Positions 2,505-15,161 are shown, counted from the first letter of the stretch. The stretch: 15,161 nt of DNA from Lentisphaeria bacterium (GCA_047616325.1 JBLHGN010000065.1:1-15161); one strand, 5' to 3'. Numbers and translations: made by a program. Notes: generated by a model from the letters alone, not told the origin.

Positions 2505-2984
2505 TCATTGAGGGAGAGCGGTATTATTAGAATTCTTGTAGGCCATATTTATAGCTGCTGCAATATGCTGTAATGTCCAAATACTATTGGGGTGCAGCAT
2601 ATTTGAACCATGAGCAAGTGTATTTCGTAAATCAGGAGCAGCTTTGACGAACTTACCCACTAAGTCTAATGAATCTAGTGCTGCTTTAATTTCCTCTTCA
2701 GGCGATTCTTCAATAGGGATGCTATCACCCTCCTTTTTCAAGACACCAGATTGAATCACATCATACATTTCATTTTGTCTTGCTTTTCGGTATGCAATCT
2801 CCTCACGATATGAAAAATCTTCATTTTTTAGCCAGCCGCTCGTTCGTGCATATTTCAGCAAAGCACGTAACATAGGAGGATCTTTATCTGGATTTTCGTT
2901 AATATAGAGCTGTTTTAGCGCCATCTCTAAACTTGCATAAGCTACCATCTCAGAGACTTGATGAAAGCGATACACAAAGGGCAT
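2505..2984 (-). CDS. Small orphan protein with a C-terminal HEPN-like R-x4-H motif (LRNTLAHG); putative HEPN-family RNase/abortive-infection-like domain protein
   Basis: A 159-aa ORF. The R-N-T-L-A-H spacing fits the Rx4-6H HEPN signature near the C-terminus of a mostly helical-looking protein. No MNT partner or antitoxin is visible. Its first ~12 codons overlap the start of the ISL3 fragment, and an alternative start at M13 (2948) is possible. Confidence 0.45.
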   Translation of the reverse strand: MPFVYRFHQVSEMVAYASLEMALKQLYINENPDKDPPMLRALLKYARTSGWLKNEDFSYREEIAYRKARQNEMYDVIQSGVLKKEGDSIPIEESPEEEIKAALDSLDLVGKFVKAAPDLRNTLAHGSNMLHPNSIWTLQHIAAAINMAYKNSNNTALPQ

Positions 2985-3731
2985 AAATACCTAACGCTGG
3001 CCTACCAGGTCGATCGCGACAATACGCGCTTACTGTGGATTGTAGAAGAGCGAACTGAAAAAACGATTCGCGCCTTCTTTGAGTTTCTTGGTCCAGAAAG
3101 AAGTCAACTATTAAAACATGTGTACTCTGACATGTGGCAACCCTATGTCAAGGTAATCTCAGAAATGGCCACCCAGGCGCTACATATATTGGATCGATTT
3201 AATGTTGTAGCTATGCGGCATAAGGCCATCGATGAAATTCGTGCGGGTGAACACAAGCAGTTAGTCGCCGACGGCTATGAGCCTGTTTTAAGGAAGTCTC
3301 GATGGTGCCTACTTAAGCGAAAACAGAATTTAACGTAGAATCAAGATATGAAATTGAAAACCTTGCTTGAATATAATTTGAAGAGCGTTAGGGCCTACCT
3401 GCTAAAAGAAGAATTCCATGCTTTCTGGGAATATGTATCTCCTTATTGGGCCGAACAATACCTTGACCGATGGTGTACTAGAGTAATGCGTGCTCGGCTC
3501 GAACCCATGAAAAAAGTCATCAAGACAATTCGCCGGCACAAGCCTCTTATATTGAATTGGTTTAGAGCAAAATAAGCATACTCAAGCGGCATTGTGGAGG
3601 GGCTAAATACCAAGGTAAAACTCACTACGAGAAAATCGTATGGTTTCAAAACCTATAAATGCGCTGAAATAGCCTTGTATCACTCGCTTGGGCGGTTACC
3701 CACTCCAGAAATGACCCACAGATTTTACTAA
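2961..3731 (+). pseudogene. ISL3-family DDE transposase, N-terminally truncated (about 170 aa missing) with two in-frame nonsense codons (TAG 3339-3341, TAA 3573-3575)
   Basis: Three collinear same-frame segments KGHKYLTLAYQVDRD...DMWQPYVKVI...HILDRFNVVAMRHKAIDEIR / ...AFWEYVSPYWAEQYLDRWCTRVMRARLEPMKKVIKTIRRHKPLILNWFRAK / AYSSGIVEGLNTKVKLTTRKSYGFKTYKCAEIALYHSLG. These match my memory of the ISL3 transposase core and C-terminus (KGHRY..., DMW..., ...ILNYFR..., SNGxIEGxNNKIKxIKRxAYGFRNF). Homology begins only at the KGH motif, so the first catalytic D and the N-terminal DNA-binding region are absent. Confidence 0.8.
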
Positions 3732-4391: not shown

Positions 4392-4469
4392 CGGCACTTA
4401 AATTGGTTCTTGCATTACGATCGCAGCGGAAGAAGCAGGGCTTCAGGAGGGAGCCTTGAGCCAAAAATG

Positions 4470-4494
4470 TTATTGATCGTATAATGATCAATAA
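4470..4494. repeat. 25-bp perfect palindrome TTATTGATC-GTATAAT-GATCAATAA, with two GATC sites and a TATAAT core
   Basis: The 9-bp arms are exact reverse complements around a 7-bp centre. It lies about 80 bp past the end of the IS1182-like fragment. Confidence 0.6.
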
Positions 4495-5143
4495 ATTGTT
4501 TTCAAGATTAGAGTTCCTGAAGCAAAAAGCACAGATAGGTCCACCTGGCCCAGCGTGTTGTGGTCATATTTTGACCGCCACGCCATTACTGAAGAAAACA
4601 GGGGTTTTCGTGCGGGCACTAAGTAGCTTTTTCCTCGCTTGAAACCATTCAGCATTACATTCACCCGCTCATTGTCACTTAGAAAAATCCTTTATGCGAA
4701 AGCATTTTCAGGGCGAGCCGTATTCCATTATCGTGTGCTATCAAACCGGCCCCTTGCTTAAAGACACTGGCATTATGCGGAAAGTTGCAGCGCTTAATAA
4801 TATGCGTGTGTGTTTTGTCGGCAATATTGAAGTGCTTTTGGCTTTTGGCTGAGGGGTTTAGCGGAGTAAAAATTGCTGGGTGATGTCTGCAGAGTGATGT
4901 GTCGTTCGGCGCACGTTTTTTGTGCTGTATATTTAATGTGCTAAGTGTTTATCGTGCAAAAATAGTTTTTGTTGTTCATTTTAAAAACATCTAATCAATT
5001 TGATGCAGATTTGATTGCTTTTTAGTAACAGTATTTTCGTTTCGCCCATTTTTGTGCCGACCTGGTTTCAAAACAGTGCGTTTATTTTCTTTTCATGATG
5101 AAATTCGCGTCAATACGTTAACTCTGCGTCACATTTAGATGTA

Positions 5144-5159
5144 TGGCACGTTAACTGCT
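5144..5159 (+). promoter_or_regulatory. Putative sigma-54 (RpoN) promoter TGGCACG-TTAA-CTGCT (-24 GG / -12 GC, correct 11-nt G-to-G spacing)
   Basis: The consensus is TGGCACG-N4-TTGCW. Here the TGGCACG matches exactly, the TGC of the -12 element is at the correct distance, and there is a single mismatch (C for T at the first T of TTGC). It lies about 200 bp upstream of the sensor kinase start. The 9-mer ACGTTAACT occurs twice (5115-5123, 5148-5156), once overlapping the promoter and once about 30 bp upstream. Confidence 0.45.
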
Positions 5160-5357: not shown

Positions 5358-7445
5358 ATGTTCGCATCTTACCTTGGTAAGTATAAAAGTATCATCGTTT
5401 CTGTAGCGCTTTTTATTATTCTTGATGCCTCCGTACTAATACTTAACTTCTATATTTCGTTTGATATTTCGGAAGATGCGGCAGGGGTTAATTTGGCGGG
5501 CCGCCAGCGCATGCTTTCCCAGCGTATGGTGAAAAGCTTATTGGATATTGATTACTCCAGTGGGAATGTAGAAGTACAAAAAGCAAGCGTCGATGAATTA
5601 GCGTTCACAGTTTCGTTGTTCGATCGCACCCTTACAGCCTTTGATAGCGGCGGAGAGGCAGATGCCGCTGACGGCGGCAAGGTTATTCTCGGGCGAGTGA
5701 ATTCCGAGTCAGGACGCAAAGCCATTGAAAAAGCAAAAATATTGTGGGCTCCCTATAAATCACTGCTAGACCCCGTAATATTGCCTGAATCGCTTGAAAG
5801 AGAGCGTGCATTAGCTACGGCAATTTTCTATGCAAAACAAAACAATCTCACTTTGCTAAAACTGATGAATAATTTAACTGTCGACCTGGAAAATGTGGCC
5901 AAATCAAAAGCTACTCGGCTGAGAGTTATTCAGACAATAGGTATAAGTTTAGCAATTATTAACTTCTTTATCATTATTTTTCACTTTATTGGCGAGTTGA
6001 GAAATGGTGACAGAAAACTCGAAATTGCCGAGGGCGAAACCAAAAAAATACTTAATACGGTCAACGATGGGCTTTTTCTTGTCGATCGCAATTATACCAT
6101 TGCCTCGCAGTACTCCAAAAATGTACCGACGATGTTTGGCGAGTCGGATATCGCTGGTAAAACGCTCGATGCAGTTCTGGCCGAATTGGTGAGTAAGAAG
6201 GACATGGAGACTTCCAAGCGCTTTATAGGATTACTTTTTCGTGAAGATATAAAAAGTAATCTTATTGGTGATCTGAATCCTCTGCGAGAAATTGAAGTGA
6301 ATATTGCCGACGAGAATGGCGGTTATGTTAGCAAGCATCTAAGCTTTAAATTTTCTCGTGCCTATGAGAGCGGCGGCGTAAAAAATGTTTTGGTTACTGT
6401 AAATGATGTGACTGAAAAGGTGAGGCTAGAGCGCGAAATTACTATGGTAAAAGCGCAAACGGAACAGCATTTGGAGGTGTTAACCGGAATTTTACACACT
6501 AATCCAAATGTATTAAAACGTTTTGTAAGCGGTTGCTTTACCGGCCTTCATAGAATCAATCTGTTTTTGCGTGAGCCTGCAAAAACCGAAGTGGTTTTGA
6601 GAAAAAAATTGGATAGCATTTTTGTCGAAATTCACAGCATAAAAGGTGAGGCGGGCGCACTCGGTTTGAACGGCTTTCAGGAGCTTGCTCACAAATTTGA
6701 ATCGGACTTGGTCGAAATTAAAAAACGTGAGAAAATTGCCGGTGATGACTTTTTCCCCTTGGTTGTGCAATTAGATAAGCTGATACGGCATGCGGAAACC
6801 GTCGAAAACCTGTCTGATAAGCTCGTCGCCTTTGGCAAAAGCGACGCAGGGCTTGGCGCTCGAAGCAGTGCCAATGAATGGGAGCACCTGCACAACTTGG
6901 TGAAAACAGTTGCCACACGATGCGGGAAAAAGGTGGAGCTAGTGATGAGTGGGCTTACAGAGATCTCTCTTTCCAGTGGCCAGCGAAAACTAGTCAATGA
7001 TGTTAGTGTGCAATGCATTCGCAACGCGGTATTTCACGGCATTGAGCTTCCGAATGAGCGCATAGAAAATTACAAGAACGAGATCGGAAGAATCGATCTT
7101 CGATTAACGCAGTCTTCCTCTGGTGTGGTAGAGCTTAGTATTAAAGACGACGGCCGAGGCTTCGACTATCGAGCAATTCGAGAACAAGCGATTAAGGTGG
7201 GCTTCTGGGGCGAGCAAGAAATGGAAGCATGGGATAGTAAGAAATTAGCTTCACTTATTTTTGAGCCAGGCTTCTCTACAGCCCAAGAAGAGCAGATGGA
7301 CGCGGGCAGAGGCGTGGGAATGAATATTGTCAAAGAGCGTATTAAGCACTATCGCGGCAATATTCGCATATCCAGCCGTCCCTCCTTGGGAACACACTTT
7401 CTTATCTCTTTACCTCCTTTATTGGGTGAAGCCGCAGCGGCATAG
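5358..7445 (+). CDS. Membrane-bound CheA-like histidine kinase: TM - periplasmic PilJ/NarX-type sensor (NLAGRQRMLSQRM) - TM - PAS-like - HPt (HSIKGEAGALG) - CheA-type P3/P4 ATPase (IRNAVFHGIE, DDGRGFD, GRGVGMNIV); no CheW-like P5 domain
   Basis: The 699-aa ORF in the track starts at TTG 5346; I prefer ATG 5358, preceded by GGGGG. There are two hydrophobic segments (residues ~10-35 and ~190-215). The HPt and HATPase_c N, G1 and G2 boxes are characteristic of CheA. The protein ends about 40 aa after the G2 box. Confidence 0.8.
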   Translation: MFASYLGKYKSIIVSVALFIILDASVLILNFYISFDISEDAAGVNLAGRQRMLSQRMVKSLLDIDYSSGNVEVQKASVDELAFTVSLFDRTLTAFDSGGEADAADGGKVILGRVNSESGRKAIEKAKILWAPYKSLLDPVILPESLERERALATAIFYAKQNNLTLLKLMNNLTVDLENVAKSKATRLRVIQTIGISLAIINFFIIIFHFIGELRNGDRKLEIAEGETKKILNTVNDGLFLVDRNYTIASQYSKNVPTMFGESDIAGKTLDAVLAELVSKKDMETSKRFIGLLFREDIKSNLIGDLNPLREIEVNIADENGGYVSKHLSFKFSRAYESGGVKNVLVTVNDVTEKVRLEREITMVKAQTEQHLEVLTGILHTNPNVLKRFVSGCFTGLHRINLFLREPAKTEVVLRKKLDSIFVEIHSIKGEAGALGLNGFQELAHKFESDLVEIKKREKIAGDDFFPLVVQLDKLIRHAETVENLSDKLVAFGKSDAGLGARSSANEWEHLHNLVKTVATRCGKKVELVMSGLTEISLSSGQRKLVNDVSVQCIRNAVFHGIELPNERIENYKNEIGRIDLRLTQSSSGVVELSIKDDGRGFDYRAIREQAIKVGFWGEQEMEAWDSKKLASLIFEPGFSTAQEEQMDAGRGVGMNIVKERIKHYRGNIRISSRPSLGTHFLISLPPLLGEAAAA

Positions 7446-7453
7446 GCGATGTA

Positions 7454-7825
7454 ATGTTAAAGCTACTGGTAGTAGACGACTCCAATATTATTCGCCGGAA
7501 AATTCAGCGCGCGTGCATAAACGAAACGTTTGAAGTGGTGGGGCTGGCGGGTAACGGCATAGAAGCACTGCGACAGTTTGGTGACTTAGGCCCCGAGGTT
7601 GTGACAATGGATATCACCATGCCGCATATGGATGGCATTGAATGCGTGGAGGAAATGATAGGCAGAAATCCAAATGTGCGCATTTTAGTGGTGTCGGCTC
7701 TGGCCGACAAAGCCACTGGAATAGAGGCACTAGAAAAGGGCGCACGTGGCTTTTTATGCAAGCCTTTTAGTGACAAACAACTTAGCGATGCACTTTACGA
7801 ATTATCTGAGGACATACATGTCTGA
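7454..7825 (+). CDS. CheY-like single-domain response regulator (receiver domain only)
   Basis: A 123-aa ORF with the acidic pocket LLVVDDS, the phospho-acceptor region VVTMDITMPHMDG, the ILVVSA...KATG T/S position, and K in GARGFLCKPF. It starts 9 bp after the kinase stop. Confidence 0.9.
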   Translation: MLKLLVVDDSNIIRRKIQRACINETFEVVGLAGNGIEALRQFGDLGPEVVTMDITMPHMDGIECVEEMIGRNPNVRILVVSALADKATGIEALEKGARGFLCKPFSDKQLSDALYELSEDIHV

Positions 7826-8267
7826 ACAAGCACTTAAAGTATTTGTTGACGGGGTGGTCAATTATTTTCAACACACAGCCGACAAAGATGTAAAAGTTGG
7901 CGCCCCATATTTGGTGGAAAATAAACAGCCCAAAGCCTTTGGTTTTACGGGCATTATCGGCGTTTCGGGGCCCTATAAGGGTACCGTATATTTTACCGCG
8001 CCGCGTATTTTACTCACTCATCTTTTGTTGAGTATCGGAGAGTTGGACACCTCGCTTGCCAATGTTATGGATATTGTTGGTGAAGTGGCCAATACTATAT
8101 CCGGAAACGCACGTGCAAATTTCGGCAAAGAATTTATGATTTCTGTACCGGTTATGGTTGAGGGTGCGCCCAGCGCCATTCACCTACCCTGCCATTTGCG
8201 CTCTTACGTAATACCAATATATTGGAAAGCCTATAGTGCTGCTGTGGTGGTGTGTCTTGAGGTTTAG
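7818..8267 (+). CDS. CheX/CheC-family CheY-P phosphatase-like protein
   Basis: Start ATG 7818 (MSEQALKVF...) overlaps the CheY stop as ATGTCTGA and is preceded by GAGGA. The motif DIVGEVANTISGNARANFG fits the E-x2-N active-site signature of CheC/CheX/FliY. A GIIGVSG glycine-rich segment and the ~150-aa length fit CheX. Confidence 0.7.
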   Translation: MSEQALKVFVDGVVNYFQHTADKDVKVGAPYLVENKQPKAFGFTGIIGVSGPYKGTVYFTAPRILLTHLLLSIGELDTSLANVMDIVGEVANTISGNARANFGKEFMISVPVMVEGAPSAIHLPCHLRSYVIPIYWKAYSAAVVVCLEV

Positions 8268-8486
8268 GGTTGGGTCATTGCCAATAGAGCGCTTACTGCC
8301 AGGTTAGCTCTGTTATCTTGTGAACGGCTCTCTGCTTTTTATACGCCATATAAATTCGAAAACCCCCAGTTGCTTGTGATTGTCTTGGAAGTATTGAGGT
8401 TGTCTTTGTCTTAAAATTCATTAGTGCCCTGTTTATGGGTGAGCACTAATAAATTTCTCGAAAATTACACTTTTCCCGCGCAGCTG

Positions 8487-8499
8487 CCCCCCCCCCCCC
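8487..8499. repeat. Homopolymeric C13 tract
   Basis: Thirteen consecutive C in the spacer between the cheX-like gene and the downstream operon. It falls inside a weak 75-codon GTG-initiated frame (8424..8651) that I do not call as a gene. Confidence 0.7.
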
Positions 8500-8641
8500 G
8501 CATGCCAATATCTACGTATAGCCTCATGTGGATCCTGGGCGGGCTCTTAGTGCTTGCCTTGTTGTTGCCCGCCTATATCCTTCAGATGCGCGTTCATTCC
8601 GTTGTAAAAATCGTTCAATCTGGTTGGTGTGTGACCTGCCA

Positions 8642-8693
8642 TTATATGTAAGTGTGTTTTATTACATGTAATATCTCGACATCTTACATGTAA
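8642..8693. promoter_or_regulatory. Three phased copies of the palindrome TTACATGTAA (8642-8651 degenerate TTATATGTAA; 8662-8671; 8684-8693), a putative operator array overlapping the promoter of the downstream operon
   Basis: The perfect 10-bp palindrome (12 bp as ATTACATGTAAT) occurs twice, plus a 1-mismatch copy. Centre-to-centre spacings are 20 and 22 bp. The array ends 18 bp before ATG 8711. Confidence 0.5.
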
Positions 8694-8710
8694 TAGGATA
8701 GTGTGGCCCT

Positions 8711-9343
8711 ATGAGTGAAAAAACATCAGCGCACTACCAGCGGGAATATCGCCGCCGGCTGCGAGATCAAGGTTTGGTAAAGAAAGAGGTGTGGGTGCTG
8801 CCGGAAAATGCCAAGCATTTGGGTAAGTTTGAAAAGATGCTGCGGGAACCCCTGAACCCATCGGATTTAACTAAAGGAGTGTTAAAAATGACCGAAATGA
8901 AACGTTGGACCACTACGACTCTTTTTGAGGTGCTGGCTGTCGAGCCGCTTTTTGATGGCGACCGAGCAATGGTGGAGCTTATTGATGGTGCTGAGCCAAG
9001 TTTGCATCTGGTGATGCATGAGTTTGGCGACTTGCCTTTGTTTTTAACTGTGGCGGGTGACCAGATAATTATCGATGCCGTGTTGTGGCCAAAAAGCGAA
9101 GTGGCGGACATCTCTGGGTTTAATGATGCAGTGCTGAGAACCCATAAGTATTTTCCGCTATCCACCATTAGTCTAGACACCCTATCGAGCGGGGCCGACT
9201 ACTATCAAATGTTTGGTGCTTTGAGTGCAAGCTCAATTTTGCCAAATATCATTTTTGAAATAGAGATGTTGGCATCCAATGTGATTCAGGCTACCGAAGC
9301 CTATGCCAATTTTTTATCAAACCAACTAAATGTGAAGGTGTGA
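8711..9343 (+). CDS. Two-part ORF: N-terminal basic/ribbon-helix-helix-like segment (YQREYRRRLRDQGLVKKEVWVLPENAKHLGKFEKML) in frame with a YjfI/DUF2170-like (YbjN-clan) domain; the DUF2170 part may be translated independently from ATG 8888
   Basis: A 210-aa frame. K-x-V-x-V-x-LPE followed by a helix is the Arc/MetJ/CopG beta-strand signature. The internal ATG 8888 (MTEMKRW...) has a strong AAGGAG RBS 8 nt upstream, whereas ATG 8711 has a weak RBS. The C-terminal 150 aa are called YjfI-like mainly from synteny, being immediately upstream of a YjfJ-type PspA gene, and from overall character. Confidence 0.55.
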   Translation: MSEKTSAHYQREYRRRLRDQGLVKKEVWVLPENAKHLGKFEKMLREPLNPSDLTKGVLKMTEMKRWTTTTLFEVLAVEPLFDGDRAMVELIDGAEPSLHLVMHEFGDLPLFLTVAGDQIIIDAVLWPKSEVADISGFNDAVLRTHKYFPLSTISLDTLSSGADYYQMFGALSASSILPNIIFEIEMLASNVIQATEAYANFLSNQLNVKV

Positions 9344-9353
9344 GGAGAGGTAA

Positions 9354-10037
9354 ATGAATGTCTGGGCGAAAATGATGACAGCGTTGCGCGGTGGAGTAAA
9401 TGAGGCGGGTGAGTTGATTGTCGATACTCAAGCCCTGCGTATTCTGGATCAAGAGGTGCGCGGTGCCACTGAGGAATTGAAACAGTCAAAAGAGGGTTTG
9501 GCGAGTATAATCGCCCGACAAAAGTTGGCGGAAGAAAAAACCGCGCTACTGCAAAAAGACATTAGCGATTATGAGGGCTATGCTGTAAAGGCTCTCGAGA
9601 AGGGTGACGAGTCGCTTGCCTTAGAGGTTGCGCAAAAAATAGCCAATCTGGAAAATGGCATGTCGACCGAGAAAAAAACCGCAGAGAGCTTTGCTGAAAG
9701 TGCTACAGAGCTCCGCAATGCCATGAAATTGGCCGAGCAGAACATTAAAAGGCTGAAGCAGCAGATCGACACCGTTAAGGCCACAGACAGTGTGCAAAAA
9801 GCGCAGGCGACTGTAGCAGCGCGATACAGTGGTTCAAACTCTAAATTGCGCACAGCGATGGATTCGCTAGACCGAATAAAAGAGAAGCAAGCCCTTAAAA
9901 GCGCGCAAATGAAAGCTGCTAATGAGCTTGCTGCAGAGACAGTAGACGATACATTGCAAACTAAGCTGCAAGCGGCTGGCATTACATCTTCTGGTGCTAG
10001 CGCCCAAGATGTCTTGGACCGTTTAAAAAAGGCTTAG
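9354..10037 (+). CDS. yjfJ: PspA/IM30 (ESCRT-III-like) family protein, YjfJ-type paralog
   Basis: A 227-aa ORF with a GAGGAGAGG RBS. RILDQEVRGATEEL and YAVKALEKGDESLALEV align with E. coli YjfJ RMLEQHIRDAKAEL and AIKALESGDEAFALEV. It is an alpha-helical, coiled-coil-rich protein. Confidence 0.8.
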   Translation: MNVWAKMMTALRGGVNEAGELIVDTQALRILDQEVRGATEELKQSKEGLASIIARQKLAEEKTALLQKDISDYEGYAVKALEKGDESLALEVAQKIANLENGMSTEKKTAESFAESATELRNAMKLAEQNIKRLKQQIDTVKATDSVQKAQATVAARYSGSNSKLRTAMDSLDRIKEKQALKSAQMKAANELAAETVDDTLQTKLQAAGITSSGASAQDVLDRLKKA

Positions 10038-10057
10038 TTGTGTTTATATAACAATAG

Positions 10058-10132
10058 GCTCGCCGAGTTTCGGTGAGCTCTAGCTAGCGTCCTATTTGTA
10101 GGCGAGCACTAGCTAATTGAAGGGCAATTAGC
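10058..10132 (+). other. Structured intergenic RNA region: two 8-bp-stem hairpins (10058-10078 GCTCGCCG-AGTTT-CGGTGAGC; 10112-10132 GCTAATTG-AAGGG-CAATTAGC) and a 14-bp direct repeat GYGAGCWCTAGCTA (10073-10088, 10102-10117); no U-tract
   Basis: Read directly from the sequence. It lies between the PspA-like and NfeD-like genes. It is not a canonical intrinsic terminator because both hairpins are followed by mixed sequence rather than a T-run. Confidence 0.35.
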
Positions 10133-10203
10133 AGAGCCGTACCCGCCTTACGGGAATAAGCTGTAAATAAAAAAATTAATGTAATAGGGTTGGGAGAACG
10201 CCG

Positions 10204-10872
10204 ATGTTTGCAATTTTGCTCACCGATAAAACGGACGGTTTTTATTCAATAGTTCTAACCTTTCCAACGGTAATATTCTCATTCTTGCTCATTGTTAGTC
10301 TCATCTATTGGCTGATTTCATTTCTAGGCGTGATAGATCTAGATATGCTTGATGCAGATGTGGATGGCGCAATGGGGGGCGACGATGTCGGTATGCCAAG
10401 CTCCGTAGCTGGTTTGGCGATGAGGCTGGGTTTAAACGGCGTGCCGTTGCCTATCATAATTTCACTTATTGCCATATTTTCTTGGTCGATTAGCTATTAC
10501 TCCGTGCACTTTATGTATCCTTTTGTACCTGGGTTTCTGGAGTGGTTAGCCGGAATTGTGATTTTGTTTGGTAGTTTATATTTGGCCATATTAATAACGG
10601 CACAAATTATCAAGCCGATACGCAGGTTGTTTAAGCAGGCGGATCAGCAAGTGGAAAAACATATCGTTGGGCGCATCGGCGTTGTTAGAACGGGGCGAGT
10701 AGATAAGTGTTTTGGTGAGGCGGTAGTGGAAGATGGTGGGGCGGGTTTAGTGGTAAAGGTTCGCTCATTTAAAGATGAGGAGTTTTCGCGGGGGGATCGT
10801 ATCGTTCTTTTAGAGTACGTGGCGTCTGGAAATATTTATAAAGTGATTTCAGAAAAAGATTTTAATAAATAA
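10204..10872 (+). CDS. yqiJ: NfeD-like inner-membrane protein with C-terminal OB-fold (YqiJ/DUF1449-like), partner of the downstream SPFH protein
   Basis: A 222-aa ORF with a GGAGAA RBS. It has three to four hydrophobic helices and a C-terminal beta-rich segment IVGRIGVVRTGRVDKCFGEAVVEDGGAGLVVKVRSF...GDRIVLLEY typical of the NfeD OB-fold. It is followed 23 bp later by a flotillin gene, as in E. coli yqiJK. Confidence 0.7.
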   Translation: MFAILLTDKTDGFYSIVLTFPTVIFSFLLIVSLIYWLISFLGVIDLDMLDADVDGAMGGDDVGMPSSVAGLAMRLGLNGVPLPIIISLIAIFSWSISYYSVHFMYPFVPGFLEWLAGIVILFGSLYLAILITAQIIKPIRRLFKQADQQVEKHIVGRIGVVRTGRVDKCFGEAVVEDGGAGLVVKVRSFKDEEFSRGDRIVLLEYVASGNIYKVISEKDFNK

Positions 10873-10895
10873 TTTAATGGTTAAGGAGTAAGGCT

Positions 10896-12854
10896 ATGCT
10901 GTCGGAATATATTGCTAATTTTGGCCCGCTAGTAGTTATTTGTGGGTTTGTAATAACTTTATTGTTGGGTGTGGGGGTTTGGTTTAAATCCTTCTACGTT
11001 AAAGTAGAGCAGGGTGTGGCTCTAATTAAAAATGATATGGGTCCAAAGCCGAAGGTATTTTTTACGGGAACCTTTGTCTACCCAGTTATTCATAAAAAAG
11101 AATTAATGCGAATTTCCCTGATTACCATGGAGGTCGATCGTCGCGGAAAAGATGGTCTCATTTGCAAAGATAATATGCGTGCGGATATCACCGTTGCGTT
11201 TTACCTTCGAGTGAATGAAACCCCTGAAGATGTATTAAAGGTAGCCAAGTCTCTGGGTGCAAATCGTGCCTCGGATAAGGACGCTGTAAGCGAGTTATTT
11301 AATGCCAAATTTTCTGAGGCTTTAAAAACTGTTGGCAAGCAAATTGATTTTGTCAATTTGTTTGAAAATAGACAGCAGTTTCGCGACAAAATTATCGAAG
11401 TTATTGGTAACGACCTCAACGGTTATGTGCTCGAAGACGTCGCTATCGACTATCTGGAACAAACGCCAAAATCTTCACTCGACCCTAGCAATATTCTCGA
11501 CGCCGAGGGGATACGTAAAATTACTGAATTGACGGCTACCCAAAACATTAAAACCAATGTTTTTGAGCGCGATGAAGAGTTGGCAATTAAAAAGAAGAAT
11601 GTTGAAACAAGAGAGGCCATGTTAGAGCTGGAGCGTCAGCAGGCCGATGCCGAGGCTAGGCAGGAAAGAGAAGTTGCGAGCATACGGGCACGAGAAGAAG
11701 CAGAAACTGTGAAAGTGCAAGAGGAAGAACGATTAAAGTCAGAGAGTTCTACCATTCAAACAGATCAGGACCTTGCCGTGCAAACGGAAAACCAAAAGCG
11801 GGAAATTGAAGTGGCCGAACAGAATCGCCAGCGCGCGGTTGTGATTGAGGTTGAAAAGGTTACACGAGCGAAAGATTTAGAAATTGTCTCCCGTGAGAGG
11901 GAGGTAGAGCTACAGCGTATAGAGGCCGAGAAGGCCGTAGAGATACAGCGCAAAGAGATTGCAAATGTAATTCGTGAGCGTGTTGCAGTAGATAAAACTG
12001 TAGCCATGGAAGAAGAGAAAATTAAAGAAGTACGCGAAGTCTCTGAGGCCGATCGTCGCAAGCAAACTAAAATTTTAGATGCAGAAGCCTTGGCAGAAGA
12101 GAAAAAAGTAGAAGAAGTTAAAAAAGCAGAAGGGGAAGAGTTAGCCGCAAAACACCGTGCTGTAGAAATTACCGTATTGGCCCAGGCTAACTTGGAGGCC
12201 TCGGCGAAAGAAGCCGATTCTCAGAAGAAATTGGCCGATGGCATACAGGCCACTCGGGCGGCTCCTGGGCTGGCCGACGCAAAAGTGCAAGAGGCAAATG
12301 CCGATGCATTTGAAAAAGAAGGCTTGGCAAAGGCGCGAGTCATTGCAGCTCAGGGCGAATCTGAAGCAACTGTTACCAGTTCAGTGGGTACAGCAGAGGC
12401 AAGTGTTATCGCCCAAAAGGGAAGTTCAGAGGCACAATCCAAGCGCGAGATAGGGCTTGCTGGAGCTGAAGTAATTCGTCAAACCTTTAAGGCAGAAGCG
12501 GATGGCTTGGTGGACAAATTTGAAGCCATGAATAGCATGAGCGACAAAGCGCGAGACCATGAAGAATTCCGTATGGGTCTAGAAACAGCATTGAAAGAAG
12601 TACTTGCTTCCATTGAAGCAGGAAAAGAGATCGCGAAAGAAAATGCCGATGTGTTGGCGGCTGCACTTCAAACGGCCAAAATTGATATCGTGGGTGGCGA
12701 AGAGCACTTCTTTGATAACTTTGCGAAATCACTTTCTATCGGTAAGGCCGTTGACGGACTAGCCGATAAAAGTGGCATCATTCAAGCGATACTGGCGAAA
12801 GTGATGGAAACCAGTGCGGCTAGAAATGCAGAAACCACTACAGAAATAAGCTAG
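10896..12854 (+). CDS. yqiK: SPFH/band-7 flotillin-like membrane protein (YqiK-like) with a long E/K/A/R-rich coiled-coil region
   Basis: A 652-aa ORF with an AAGGAG RBS. It has an N-terminal TM helix and an SPFH core (VALIKNDMGPKPKVFFTGTFVYPVIHKKELMRISLITMEVD...RADITVAFYLRV). About 250 aa of heptad-like E/K/R/A-rich sequence follow. The C-terminus is flotillin-like (DIVGG..., GIIQAIL). Confidence 0.85.
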   Translation: MLSEYIANFGPLVVICGFVITLLLGVGVWFKSFYVKVEQGVALIKNDMGPKPKVFFTGTFVYPVIHKKELMRISLITMEVDRRGKDGLICKDNMRADITVAFYLRVNETPEDVLKVAKSLGANRASDKDAVSELFNAKFSEALKTVGKQIDFVNLFENRQQFRDKIIEVIGNDLNGYVLEDVAIDYLEQTPKSSLDPSNILDAEGIRKITELTATQNIKTNVFERDEELAIKKKNVETREAMLELERQQADAEARQEREVASIRAREEAETVKVQEEERLKSESSTIQTDQDLAVQTENQKREIEVAEQNRQRAVVIEVEKVTRAKDLEIVSREREVELQRIEAEKAVEIQRKEIANVIRERVAVDKTVAMEEEKIKEVREVSEADRRKQTKILDAEALAEEKKVEEVKKAEGEELAAKHRAVEITVLAQANLEASAKEADSQKKLADGIQATRAAPGLADAKVQEANADAFEKEGLAKARVIAAQGESEATVTSSVGTAEASVIAQKGSSEAQSKREIGLAGAEVIRQTFKAEADGLVDKFEAMNSMSDKARDHEEFRMGLETALKEVLASIEAGKEIAKENADVLAAALQTAKIDIVGGEEHFFDNFAKSLSIGKAVDGLADKSGIIQAILAKVMETSAARNAETTTEIS

Positions 12855-12862
12855 TCATAGGG

Positions 12863-12914
12863 CTACGCCAAATATTGATTTTTTTTTAAGTTGTTGGTCG
12901 ATTATTTGGCGTAG
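12863..12914. repeat. 12-bp perfect inverted repeat CTACGCCAAATA / TATTTGGCGTAG around a 28-nt T-rich loop containing T9; possible attenuator- or terminator-like element or protein-binding site
   Basis: Arms at 12863-12874 and 12903-12914. It starts 9 bp after the flotillin stop and ends 30 bp before the next start. Confidence 0.3.
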
Positions 12915-12944
12915 TTAACATAGGTTTTAAGTTGGAGAGATGCT

Positions 12945-13268: not shown

Positions 13269-13362
13269 TCTTTATGTCTATCTAATAGTCTAAGATTTGG
13301 AACCTTAGAAAACTAAAATCCCCGATAACAGTGTGTTACCTCGGCTATGGATAAGGTGTCGT

Positions 13363-15161
13363 ATGTCGGAAAAAATAGAGAATAATTCGGAAATGTTGGT
13401 CGGTCAAGCAGTAGCAGAGGGCGGTGCGTACGAAGTTATAAAGCGACGCCTCACCGAGCAGGGTAATCGCTTAATTGATCGCGTTGATATTCTAAATAAG
13501 GCGCGCCTGAGTGAGTTTGGAACCTCAGACATGGCGGTCGCCGCGCGCACGAGAGTGCGTACAGAAAACAATTGTATCGCGCGTGACATTGTCCAAGTGG
13601 GCGACTGCCTGTTATTTGGCTACAACGTATTTATAGGCTTAAAAAAAGAAACCTTAGTAAACGATGTTTTTGCGGTGTTTAGTTTGGATCACAGCGGTGA
13701 TCAGTATGAGATGCAGAAAATAAAAACAGAGGATACTTTTTTAGGTGACGAGAGATTTGCCAAGGACTTTCACGAACTCTATCACTACTACAAGCAGACC
13801 CGACTGCAAGAAATTTCAGTAAAAGACGGCAAGCTTTTAATGGGTTTCCAAATAGGCGAACGCTTAGAGGCGGTACGCGTATTTCGCTGGTCGATTTCAG
13901 CTGACGGCACCAAAGTTGAATACATCGACAATCGCGGTGAGCGCGATATTCAGCTACCGCCAGCCTATGATTTTGAGTGGCAGCAATGCACGCGCGAAGA
14001 CGTGGTTCACGGGCGCCACGCCCACGTTAATATTCTAGATACAGTTTTTATCGAGACCATAGCGGGTGACCTGACGCTTAAGGTAGAAAATAACACCGAC
14101 GAAGGTGAGGGAATATACCGCGAAGAGGTTGACAGCAAGACGCAGTCTATTGACGACGCTGAATTTTGGTTCGCAAAACTTGGCGATTTGATTTTATTAA
14201 AAGTATTGCCCTATCAAGAAGAAATATGGCGATACCTTGTTTTTAATACTCTTACACAAAAGGTTAATCGTATCGACGCCATTGGCGCTTCCTGCGTGCA
14301 ATTGCCAGAAGACCACGGCATTGTTTTTCCCGGTGGTTATTACCTGCAGTCGGGTGAGTATAAAACTTACGACGACGAAACCGAAGGCTTAAAATTTAAG
14401 CGAATGATTCGCTCCCCCAATGGAGAAGATGTTCTCTATGTGTTTTACGAGCCGGTCAACGGGCTTTTTGCTTTGCTGGCTTATAATATGATCAACAAGG
14501 CTTTGCTGAACCCCATCGTAGGCCACGGTTACGCTCTAGCAGGCGACGGCACCTTAGTGATTTTTTCTGCTGAGGGGGAACCCACTCGTATACACCCTAT
14601 GCAAATCTGGAATACTCCCTACGTCAGTGATGAGTTCGCCAGCAAACAGCCGGAGAGCCAAACATTTTTTGGTCGGATCGGTAACGCGCCATTGGTAAGA
14701 GGTATTTCCGATCTATACAGCGTTGGCCGCGTTGCGCTAAACCAATCTGTTTCGGCGCGTGTGTACGAAGAGCTTAGCAAAGCAGCTCTAAAGATTTTCG
14801 ACGATCATTTTTGGGTTTTGGATAACCAGCTCAACGAAGTATTGGCGGTAGAGGGCGAGTCGAATAATACAGGCGATGAAAATACCCTTGAGCGATTGCT
14901 ACGGGGCGTTTCCGATACGGCAGAGTTGGCTATAGACGAATTCGAAAAAGTTGAAAGCATCAGCCAGCAATCTGCTTTTGCACTAAAAGACGCTATGGCG
15001 GCGCAAAATAGTTTAGTCAGTTTGGTCACCACATCATCCTGGGAAACCGTAGAAGAATATGTTGGTGCGCTGGATGACATTCGCAAACAGCGCGGCCACG
15101 TGGCTACTATAAAAGATTATCGTTATATCGACGTAGACAAGTTGAAGCAAATGGATGAGAA
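13363..15161 (+). CDS. Large conserved-looking hypothetical protein of at least 599 aa, with no stop before the window end; no motif I recognise
   Basis: My own translation from ATG 13363 runs without a stop codon to position 15161 (MSEKIENNSEMLVGQAVAEGGAYEVIKRRLTEQGNRLIDRVDILNKARLSEFG...DIRKQRGHVATIKDYRYIDVDKLKQMDE). The RBS is AAGGTG 4 nt upstream. It has mixed alpha/beta character and no P-loop in the part visible. It is absent from the ORF track, presumably because it has no in-window stop. Confidence 0.7.
   Translation, partial: MSEKIENNSEMLVGQAVAEGGAYEVIKRRLTEQGNRLIDRVDILNKARLSEFGTSDMAVAARTRVRTENNCIARDIVQVGDCLLFGYNVFIGLKKETLVNDVFAVFSLDHSGDQYEMQKIKTEDTFLGDERFAKDFHELYHYYKQTRLQEISVKDGKLLMGFQIGERLEAVRVFRWSISADGTKVEYIDNRGERDIQLPPAYDFEWQQCTREDVVHGRHAHVNILDTVFIETIAGDLTLKVENNTDEGEGIYREEVDSKTQSIDDAEFWFAKLGDLILLKVLPYQEEIWRYLVFNTLTQKVNRIDAIGASCVQLPEDHGIVFPGGYYLQSGEYKTYDDETEGLKFKRMIRSPNGEDVLYVFYEPVNGLFALLAYNMINKALLNPIVGHGYALAGDGTLVIFSAEGEPTRIHPMQIWNTPYVSDEFASKQPESQTFFGRIGNAPLVRGISDLYSVGRVALNQSVSARVYEELSKAALKIFDDHFWVLDNQLNEVLAVEGESNNTGDENTLERLLRGVSDTAELAIDEFEKVESISQQSAFALKDAMAAQNSLVSLVTTSSWETVEEYVGALDDIRKQRGHVATIKDYRYIDVDKLKQMDE

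Follow-up and report, generated by a model that had tools for sequence, protein, structure and literature searches.

The kinase–cheY–cheX locus

We analyzed a contig deposited as "Lentisphaeria bacterium" (GCA_047616325.1, JBLHGN010000065.1); "the window" below refers to this whole contig, at its full length of 15,161 bp. The locus of interest is a set of three tightly packed genes, all on the + strand, which encode a transmembrane sensor kinase built from CheA-type domains, a single-domain CheY response regulator, and a CheX-type phosphatase predicted to act on phosphorylated CheY (CheY-P). An initial interpretation of this DNA, made by a model without database searches (hereafter the sequence-only reading), had placed such a kinase/CheY/CheX set at these coordinates, and both Pfam matches and open reading frame (ORF) coordinates bear this out: matches to PilJ, Hpt, and HATPase_c for the kinase, Response_reg for CheY, and CheX for the third gene all exceeded curated cut-offs. 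The features of the three genes are as follows.

5358–7445, + strand: sensor kinase, 695 amino acids (aa), comprising a first transmembrane helix (TM1), PilJ bundle, second transmembrane helix (TM2), PAS, HPt (P1), and CheA-type P4
5379–5456, + strand: TM1, residues 8–33, hydrophobic stretch KYKSIIVSVALFIILDASVLILNFYI, helical in the structure model
5457–5924, + strand: periplasmic PilJ-type four-helix-bundle sensor, residues 34–189 (Pfam PilJ; match to the McpN ligand-binding domain; four long helices in the model)
5487–5522, + strand: N-box VNLAGRQRMLSQ, residues 44–55, predicted nitrate-binding motif, exact consensus match
5925–5999, + strand: TM2, residues 190–214, hydrophobic (VIQTIGISLAIINFFIIIFHFIGEL); in the model it runs on from sensor helix 4
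6063–6416, + strand: cytoplasmic PAS-like domain, residues 236–353 (PAS_9, E 0.045; model fold; Foldseek)
6504–6836, + strand: HPt/P1 four-helix bundle, residues 383–493 (Pfam Hpt; CheA P1 alignment)
6633–6635, + strand: codon of the predicted phospho-accepting His426, motif HSIKGEAG, aligned to CheA His48
6882–7427, + strand: CheA-type catalytic P4, residues 509–690, with boxes HGIE (560), DDGRG (597), PGFST (637), and GRGVGM (650)
7454–7825, + strand: cheY, 123 aa, single-domain response regulator (Response_reg, E 1.2e-25)
7610–7612, + strand: codon of the predicted CheY phospho-acceptor Asp53, from the receiver alignment
7818–8267, + strand: cheX, 149 aa, CheX-type CheY-P phosphatase (Pfam CheX, E 7.9e-20)
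8070–8093, + strand: CheX catalytic motif D85-x3-E89-x2-N92 (DIVGEVAN, residues 85–92), from alignment

The gap between the kinase stop and the cheY start is 9 nucleotides (nt), and the cheX ATG at 7818, located within ATGTCTGA, overlaps the cheY stop by 8 nt. The cheX frame opens further upstream, at a GTG at 7746, and the ATG at 7818 was chosen since the resulting 149 aa correspond to the length of the homologues. An Rfam scan of the window matched zero RNA families.

A receptor-fused kinase with CheA-type P1 and P4

The N-terminal part of the kinase is organized as a transmembrane receptor. Pfam detected PilJ at residues 35–102 (E 6.4e-10), the sensor matched the ligand-binding domain of McpN (6gcv, E 4.2e-5), and an AlphaFold2 model built on 40 homologues (mean predicted local distance difference test score, pLDDT, 79.6) folded residues 6–226 into a four-helix periplasmic bundle bracketed by two hydrophobic spans, all in agreement with the periplasmic PilJ/NarX-type four-helix sensor anticipated by the sequence-only reading. 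A poorly predicted linker (residues 218–235) leads to an alpha/beta domain with a PAS-like order of strands and helices (residues 238–350, pLDDT about 70–80), followed by one single helix (residues 352–379). The PAS_9 profile is covered in full by residues 236–353, at E 0.045 only under relaxed Pfam settings, and Foldseek alignments to PAS/LOV histidine kinases span about 480–510 columns; full profile coverage and the modeled fold together support the PAS-like domain that had been proposed. HAMP, GAF, and HisKA gave no Pfam matches in the kinase, relaxed threshold included.

The C-terminal part consists of two CheA-type domains. The model places an HPt four-helix bundle at residues 383–493, within which Pfam recognized Hpt (residues 415–462, E 1.7e-6), and residues 415–474 align to Escherichia coli CheA P1 with His426 falling on His48. 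A linker follows (residues 494–508, of which 495–503 are disordered), and then P4 (residues 509–690), detected as HATPase_c at residues 552–687 (E 4.1e-13). Residues 512–689 matched E. coli CheA P4 at E 2.7e-28 in a search against sequences of solved structures, and the domain resembles Thermotoga maritima CheA P4 with a Foldseek TM-score of about 0.85 and a root-mean-square deviation (rmsd) of about 2.1 Å. Among aligned kinase homologues, H426, K429, and G430 are invariant, as are the four P4 boxes HGIE, DDGRG, PGFST, and GRGVGM.

The HPt domain and P4 were thus correctly called in the sequence-only reading, which had however described the catalytic part as P3/P4, and P3 is missing. The last HPt helix ends at residue 493 and the P4-aligned stretch begins at 512, so that merely 18 mostly disordered residues lie between them and the 60–70-residue P3 dimerization hairpin cannot fit; CheW and H-kinase_dim returned zero Pfam matches in the kinase even at E ≤ 10. 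No P2 domain was found in the kinase either. At the other end, the protein stops 8 residues past the HATPase_c match with cheY following 9 nt on, which leaves no space for P5, and the predicted absence of a P5/CheW-like domain is therefore upheld. Given the missing P5 and the protein's own transmembrane sensor, direct sensing without docking to chemoreceptor arrays, as had been suggested, is the natural reading. A 2023 survey of 13,673 CheA sequences described a core of P1, P3, P4, and P5, with CheW in 100% of sequences, P3 always alongside P4 and P5, and no input domain (PMC10782961). The window kinase shares P1 and P4 with this core, lacks P3 and P5, and carries an input domain: it uses CheA parts but is not CheA.

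It is scarcely credible that the protein is instead an ordinary array-working CheA with CheW and methyl-accepting chemotaxis proteins (MCPs) encoded elsewhere, its missing domains having been lost through faulty annotation or assembly. Its P1 and P4 do belong unmistakably to the CheA type, and databases label the family "ATP-binding protein" or "CheA", with "chemotaxis sensor kinase CheA" at NCBI/JGI. Yet besides the empty domain searches and the position of cheY directly after the kinase stop, hundreds of homologues share an identical length and C-terminus, and the CheA survey cited above reports neither the two membrane-spanning helices nor a periplasmic sensor or PAS domain. CheA models were the top-scoring NCBIfam models for the kinase, yet far under cut-off (142 vs 950 bits), and the database name "Chemotaxis protein CheA" is misleading for these genes.

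The two partner proteins also carry intact catalytic residues. CheY has a receiver fold with the acidic pocket, Ser, Lys, and aromatic switch residue, and no output domain; among solved structures T. maritima CheY (1tmy) is closest, at E 2.2e-25, and the residues D8, D9, D53, S81, F100, and K103 show no variation across the CheYs of 22 trios. CheX is related to solved CheC/CheX proteins, with the D, E, and N of the catalytic motif invariant in 21 trio CheX proteins and the distal Pro at +19 after the Asn, not +22. The pairing of a domain-less CheY with a CheX-type phosphatase, as initially described, is confirmed by Pfam, and the output of CheY is, as also stated there, not visible. Invariance of the catalytic residues across CheY, CheX, and kinase means that all three are being selected as active enzymes. 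CheY and P4 are both closer to the Thermotoga/archaeal type, which pairs with CheC/CheX, than to the E. coli type, suggesting that the module derived from such a chemotaxis system.

A widespread conserved cassette

We next evaluated how common this arrangement is. Word-sharing kinase homologues numbered 625 at E ≤ 1e-10, and the best 120 of these are mostly about 690–740 aa long, nearly all with PilJ and HATPase_c whether Hpt was detected or not. In a full HMMER scan, 1,232 representatives of 50%-identity clusters matched the PAS-HPt-P4 part at E ≤ 1e-30, and the best 150 of them all terminate directly after P4. Most representatives have an N-terminal extension of about 230–270 residues, and those checked against Pfam are PilJ sensors. 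Variants also exist: in some, PilJ is doubled, and in others the N-terminal part shrinks to about 60 residues. The short form, for which no PilJ match was found, still belongs to a complete trio, and the double-PilJ form is followed by cheY, after which its contig ends.

The order kinase–cheY–cheX was found in all 23 trios (22 loci) having downstream DNA, at kinase identities of 32–68%, and is supported by called genes in Agaribacterium, Hahella, Cellvibrio, Polaromonas, and metagenomes. The trio is therefore a widespread conserved cassette and not an accident of one contig. On one marine metagenome contig (L006), the entire trio is tandemly duplicated (6611–9535 and 10001–12923). Separately, cheX is followed directly, on the same strand, by the gene for a type-II NADH dehydrogenase (NDH-2) in members of one clade (L008, 10996–12255; L011, 10972–12240), a possible sign that the cassette is tied to respiration or redox state there. 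Full-text literature searches found no account of a transmembrane P1+P4-only kinase, nor of a CheY/CheX pair in nas/nitrate clusters, although absence from such searches is not proof.

Genes for array partners are largely missing around these loci. The window holds no CheW or MCP gene. For the flanks of 16 related loci, a set of 104 ORFs that included antisense artefacts in high-GC loci matched 77 Pfam families, and neither CheW nor MCP was among the leading 25. The lone MCP among the called genes of nine looked-up loci is in Hahella, on the opposite strand and about 5 kb upstream, in agreement with the array-free reading. Nine of the flanking ORFs initially counted as "unknown" were discarded as antisense artefacts, as tblastn and called genes place nrtA, nrtB, and nrtD there.

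A predicted nitrate-binding motif and nitrate-assimilation neighborhoods

Several lines of evidence link the cassette to nitrate, the first being the sensor itself. The PilJ domain of McpN has been solved with nitrate at the dimer axis, held by Arg61, and the N-box [IVL]-[ND]-x-A-G-x-Q-R-M-L-[ST]-Q was put forward as a predictor of nitrate-binding PilJ domains (Martin-Mora et al., PMC6381276). The window kinase matches this consensus exactly, with Arg51 corresponding to McpN Arg61. Among aligned homologues, the N-box is exact in 37 of 40, with several distant members carrying Ser for Ala at one position, and N45, G48, R49, Q50, R51, M52, L53, and Q55 are invariant. Between the window and its distant relatives, identity is highest in the periplasmic sensor (37–50%), compared to 23–34% in HPt and 28–38% in P4, and this superior conservation of the sensor argues for one common ligand.

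A second line of evidence is gene neighborhood. In 9 of the 14 distant loci whose flanks are long enough to judge (L009, L012, L013, L015, L016, L017, L021, L043, and L089), nrtA-nrtB-nrtD immediately precedes the trio in the same orientation, and these nrt-linked loci are scattered over several branches of the kinase tree. In two of them, L009 and L021, the 12-residue N-box is identical to that of the window. Assimilation genes also occur on the other side: narK comes after cheX in L015 and L016, L016/L088 and L089 have nirB downstream as well, and L088 further includes nirD and the assimilatory nitrate reductase gene nasA. According to called genes, two Comamonadaceae clusters, namely the metagenome locus L088 (closest named relatives Ramlibacter) and Polaromonas sp. 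A23 (L089), read NasT-like ANTAR, nrtA, nrtB, nrtD, kinase, cheY, cheX, narK, PP2C/kinase gene, nirB. The sequence-only reading had recognized the NarX-like fold of the sensor; it had noticed neither the nitrate evidence nor the spread of the cassette. Our analysis adds that the cassette is widespread, often located inside nitrate-assimilation clusters, and probably nitrate-responsive.

The composition of these clusters also raises the question of whether the true output could be a distant DNA- or RNA-binding regulator, either a NasT-like ANTAR protein or one of NarL type, with CheY/CheX serving only as a phosphate sink. One HPt domain can pass phosphate to more than one receiver, chemotaxis offers established examples of CheYs acting as phosphate sinks, and a NasT-like ANTAR protein heads both Comamonadaceae clusters with called genes. 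These ANTAR proteins, however, match the receiver profile only weakly (E about 1e-4) and without its N-terminal end (profile start 15–16), resembling non-phosphorylated NasT/AmiR, and the clusters hold their own candidate nitrate-responsive antiterminator, including a REC-ANTAR-PilJ protein in L089. The clade of the window has no such regulator nearby, and the constant partner of the kinase is the single-domain CheY. We therefore consider a distant regulator of this kind an unlikely output. The L089 locus deserves mention in its own right: it encodes a cytoplasmic REC-ANTAR-PilJ(x2) fusion (13272–14552, − strand), which would be a NasR-like antiterminator using PilJ instead of a NIT domain, and a globin gene (4453–4872) between nrtD and the kinase.

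A candidate promoter is also shared between nitrate-linked and stand-alone trios. In the window, it lies upstream of the kinase gene:

5144–5159, + strand: TGGCACGTTAACTGCT, sigma-54-type promoter-like box (−24/−12), 214 nt upstream of the kinase start codon, function predicted from sequence

This box is the sole match in the window to TGGCACG-N4-TTGCW at ≤1 mismatch. Comparable boxes precede stand-alone trios by no more than 600 nt in L003, L005, L006, L007, L008, L011, and L027, and others are located upstream of nrtA in L013, L016, L017, and L089. Overall, they are enriched about 25-fold upstream of these operons over a background of 0.03 per 600 nt, and if functional would fit control by nitrogen limitation.

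Proposed mechanism and output

Taken together, these results make it probable, if well short of certain, that the trio is a self-contained, array-free three-gene phosphorelay that reports external nitrate, and possibly also nitrite. We infer the following path. Nitrate would be bound at the dimer interface of the PilJ bundle via Arg51 of the N-box, and the signal would pass through TM2 to the cytoplasmic PAS domain and the linker helix at residues 352–379; these elements, rather than P3, presumably hold the dimer. Ligand binding would alter the phosphorylation by P4 of His426 on the directly fused HPt domain, from which the phosphoryl group would be transferred to Asp53 of CheY. The co-translated CheX may then strip CheY-P through Glu89/Asn92, so that the level of CheY-P would track nitrate fast. 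Expression would probably be driven by the sigma-54 promoter, with control by nitrogen limitation suggested. As established for CheA, HPt-based kinases differ from ordinary sensor kinases in being without phosphatase activity of their own, and dephosphorylation is performed by CheZ, CheC, CheX, or FliY. CheX would accordingly be the off-switch of this relay, which would explain why the three genes are always found together.

CheY-P would contact a protein target encoded elsewhere. Our leading guess, which we hold only tentatively, is the control of motility towards nitrate, favored because a CheY-type regulator is paired here with a fast phosphatase. Close behind, and somewhat less probable, comes direct protein-level control of nitrate uptake or assimilation, while a role of CheY as a phosphate sink beside another regulator seems decidedly unlikely. 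A bolder version of the second possibility, which we consider doubtful as a whole, is that the kinase represents an unrecognized histidine kinase class, i.e., a transmembrane receptor fused to CheA P1-P4 and without a dimerization domain, and that CheY is a switch gating nitrate uptake or assimilation and not a motor regulator. If this were true, CheY might bind the NrtD ATPase, or the NasT-like antiterminator in the place of NasS, and chemotaxis hardware would have been co-opted for fast metabolic control.

Several points weigh against the nitrate-reporting relay as proposed, or against individual steps of it. Nitrate binding is predicted via a motif validated on one protein, McpN, and the clade of the window (the window and L003–L007) never adjoins nitrate genes, so that the ligand of the window kinase is deduced from the motif and the conservation of the sensor. 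Sequence alone supports the PAS domain poorly (E 0.045), and both the mode of dimerization and the cis or trans route of phosphorylation are guesses. Sigma-54 also drives flagellar genes in polar flagellates, and nitrogen control is thus not proven. The relay has no CheR/CheB adaptation system, and gradient sensing would be limited accordingly if the output is motility. Finally, most Ramlibacter species are without flagellin and many trio relatives are from Ramlibacter, which, at the level of the genus, makes the flagellar motor less likely to be the target throughout the family.

The first two of these points would also fit a relay that operates as described with a sensor that recognizes neither nitrate nor nitrite but, for example, a different anion or a protein partner in the periplasm, as would the existence of the short-N-terminus kinase variant for which no PilJ match was found. 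We see a modest chance of this. The exact and invariant N-box, the sensor being the most conserved domain, and the repeated embedding in nrt/nas clusters on several branches, including the two loci whose N-box is identical to that of the window, all speak instead for nitrate.

Flanking genes and origin of the contig

Downstream of the trio lies a cluster encoding BacA/DUF2170, PspA, a membrane protein, a FloT-like protein, a glycine-zipper protein, and a DUF3686 ATPase. BacA/DUF2170 scored above the NCBIfam equivalog cut-off and PspA is clear (E 2.1e-44), whereas the FloT match is weak (E 2.1e-4). In the other loci examined, the trio has none of these genes as a neighbor. The cluster is separated from the trio by one further feature:

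8268–8710, no strand assigned: cheX–bacA spacer, 443 bp, outside the module, with three palindromic boxes and a C12 run

The sequence-only reading had placed the trio immediately upstream, on the same strand, of a PspA/flotillin operon, and had raised the possibility that it modulates this membrane module. The shared strand and PspA are borne out; the 443-bp spacer does not amount to immediate proximity, and the flotillin assignment stays tentative. As to modulation, comparative support is absent, with the module present in 0 of 22 related loci.

It is indeed highly improbable that the trio controls the BacA/PspA/flotillin-like cluster, either by read-through or by binding of CheY-P. The two share a strand at a distance of 443 bp, and no convincing intrinsic terminator was found after cheX, which would allow read-through. 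BacA/PspA/flotillin homologues are nevertheless missing beside the trio in 22 related full-trio loci and among the called genes of nine loci, and the closest kinase relatives (67–68% identity) sit between nadA and leuA. The start of bacA is at 8711, and three TTACATGTAA-like palindromic boxes (8641–8695) precede it by 16–70 bp; they look like an operator, which suggests that the bac cluster has its own regulated promoter. In addition, a broken ISL3 element on the left flank indicates rearrangement. We conclude that the adjacency of the two gene sets is incidental.

A few further features of the flanks were recorded. BacA has a basic 60-residue N-terminal extension preceding DUF2170 that might bind the palindromic boxes. 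A run of 12 cytosines (8489–8500), inside a doubtful 75-codon ORF (8424–8651), may be prone to slippage or may stem from an assembly error. The DUF3686 gene ("ATPase involved in DNA repair", 13366–15161, E 1e-200) runs off the contig end and is apparently the last gene of the bac cluster. To the left of the trio, an ISL3-family transposase is split into ORFs 2958–3338 and 3348–3575 and constitutes a pseudogene (region on to about 4400). About 1.8 kb of mostly non-coding DNA separates this remnant from the kinase, suggesting a rearranged left flank.

Despite the deposited label "Lentisphaeria bacterium", every gene checked has gammaproteobacterial affinities: for instance, BacA scored above the Pseudomonas equivalog cut-off, and the named relatives of the kinase come from Agaribacterium, Cellvibrio, and Hahella. 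Mis-binning of the contig is thus probable.

Significance and comparison with known systems

Both in teaching and in the recent survey, CheA is a kinase that does no sensing of its own and invariably contains P3 and P5. Here, P1 and P4 are wired to a receptor, in roughly a thousand sequence clusters. This provides a minimal system, consisting of one membrane protein, a CheY, and a phosphatase, for ligand control of P1-P4 phosphotransfer without a chemoreceptor lattice. It also suggests a third nitrate-signaling route beside NarX/NarQ and NasS-NasT/NasR in marine and soil Proteobacteria, often within nitrate-assimilation clusters.

The catalytic half of the kinase is most similar to CheA of E. 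coli and T. maritima. It shares a P1 with the HSIKG motif and a P4 with the HGIE/DDGxG/PGFST/GRGVGM boxes, at about 30% identity and an rmsd of about 2 Å, and it is likewise partnered by a single-domain CheY and a CheC/CheX-class phosphatase. Unlike CheA, it is without P2, P3, and P5, and hence has no CheA dimerization hairpin and no coupling to CheW or receptors; its P1 is joined to P4 by only about 18 residues, and it adds a PAS domain and, flanked by two transmembrane helices, a periplasmic sensor, where CheA has no input domain.

The sensory half has its closest counterpart in McpN (PA2788) of P. aeruginosa, with a periplasmic PilJ bundle between two transmembrane helices and an exact N-box including the nitrate-contacting Gly/Arg/Met (PMC6381276). 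McpN is a methyl-accepting receptor that works through CheW/CheA arrays, whereas the window sensor is fused through PAS to a kinase. The sensor is shared more distantly with NarX/NarQ, which also have a transmembrane four-helix-bundle sensor coupled directly to the kinase, with an arginine-bearing box where the two subunits meet. In NarX/NarQ, however, the sensor is followed by HAMP, a signaling helix, a GAF-like domain, and DHp (HisKA_3 type) and CA domains, instead of the PAS, HPt, and P4 of the window kinase. NarX/NarQ are moreover bifunctional kinase/phosphatases acting on the DNA-binding NarL/NarP, while the window kinase would need a separate phosphatase.

This phosphatase resembles CheX/CheC/FliY of T. 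maritima and Borrelia burgdorferi in its CheX Pfam match, its D-x3-E-x2-N motif, and the adjoining Thermotoga-like CheY. It differs in occurring in Proteobacteria, whose flagellar pathways usually employ CheZ, in being tied to an array-free kinase, and in the position of the Pro (+19, not +22). Finally, the trio has in common with NasS-NasT/NasR the nas/nrt clusters and, presumably, a response to nitrate/nitrite. Those systems rely on cytoplasmic binding-protein or NIT sensors and an ANTAR antiterminator, without phosphotransfer, whereas the trio would sense in the periplasm and signal by His-Asp phosphotransfer to a receiver without an output domain.

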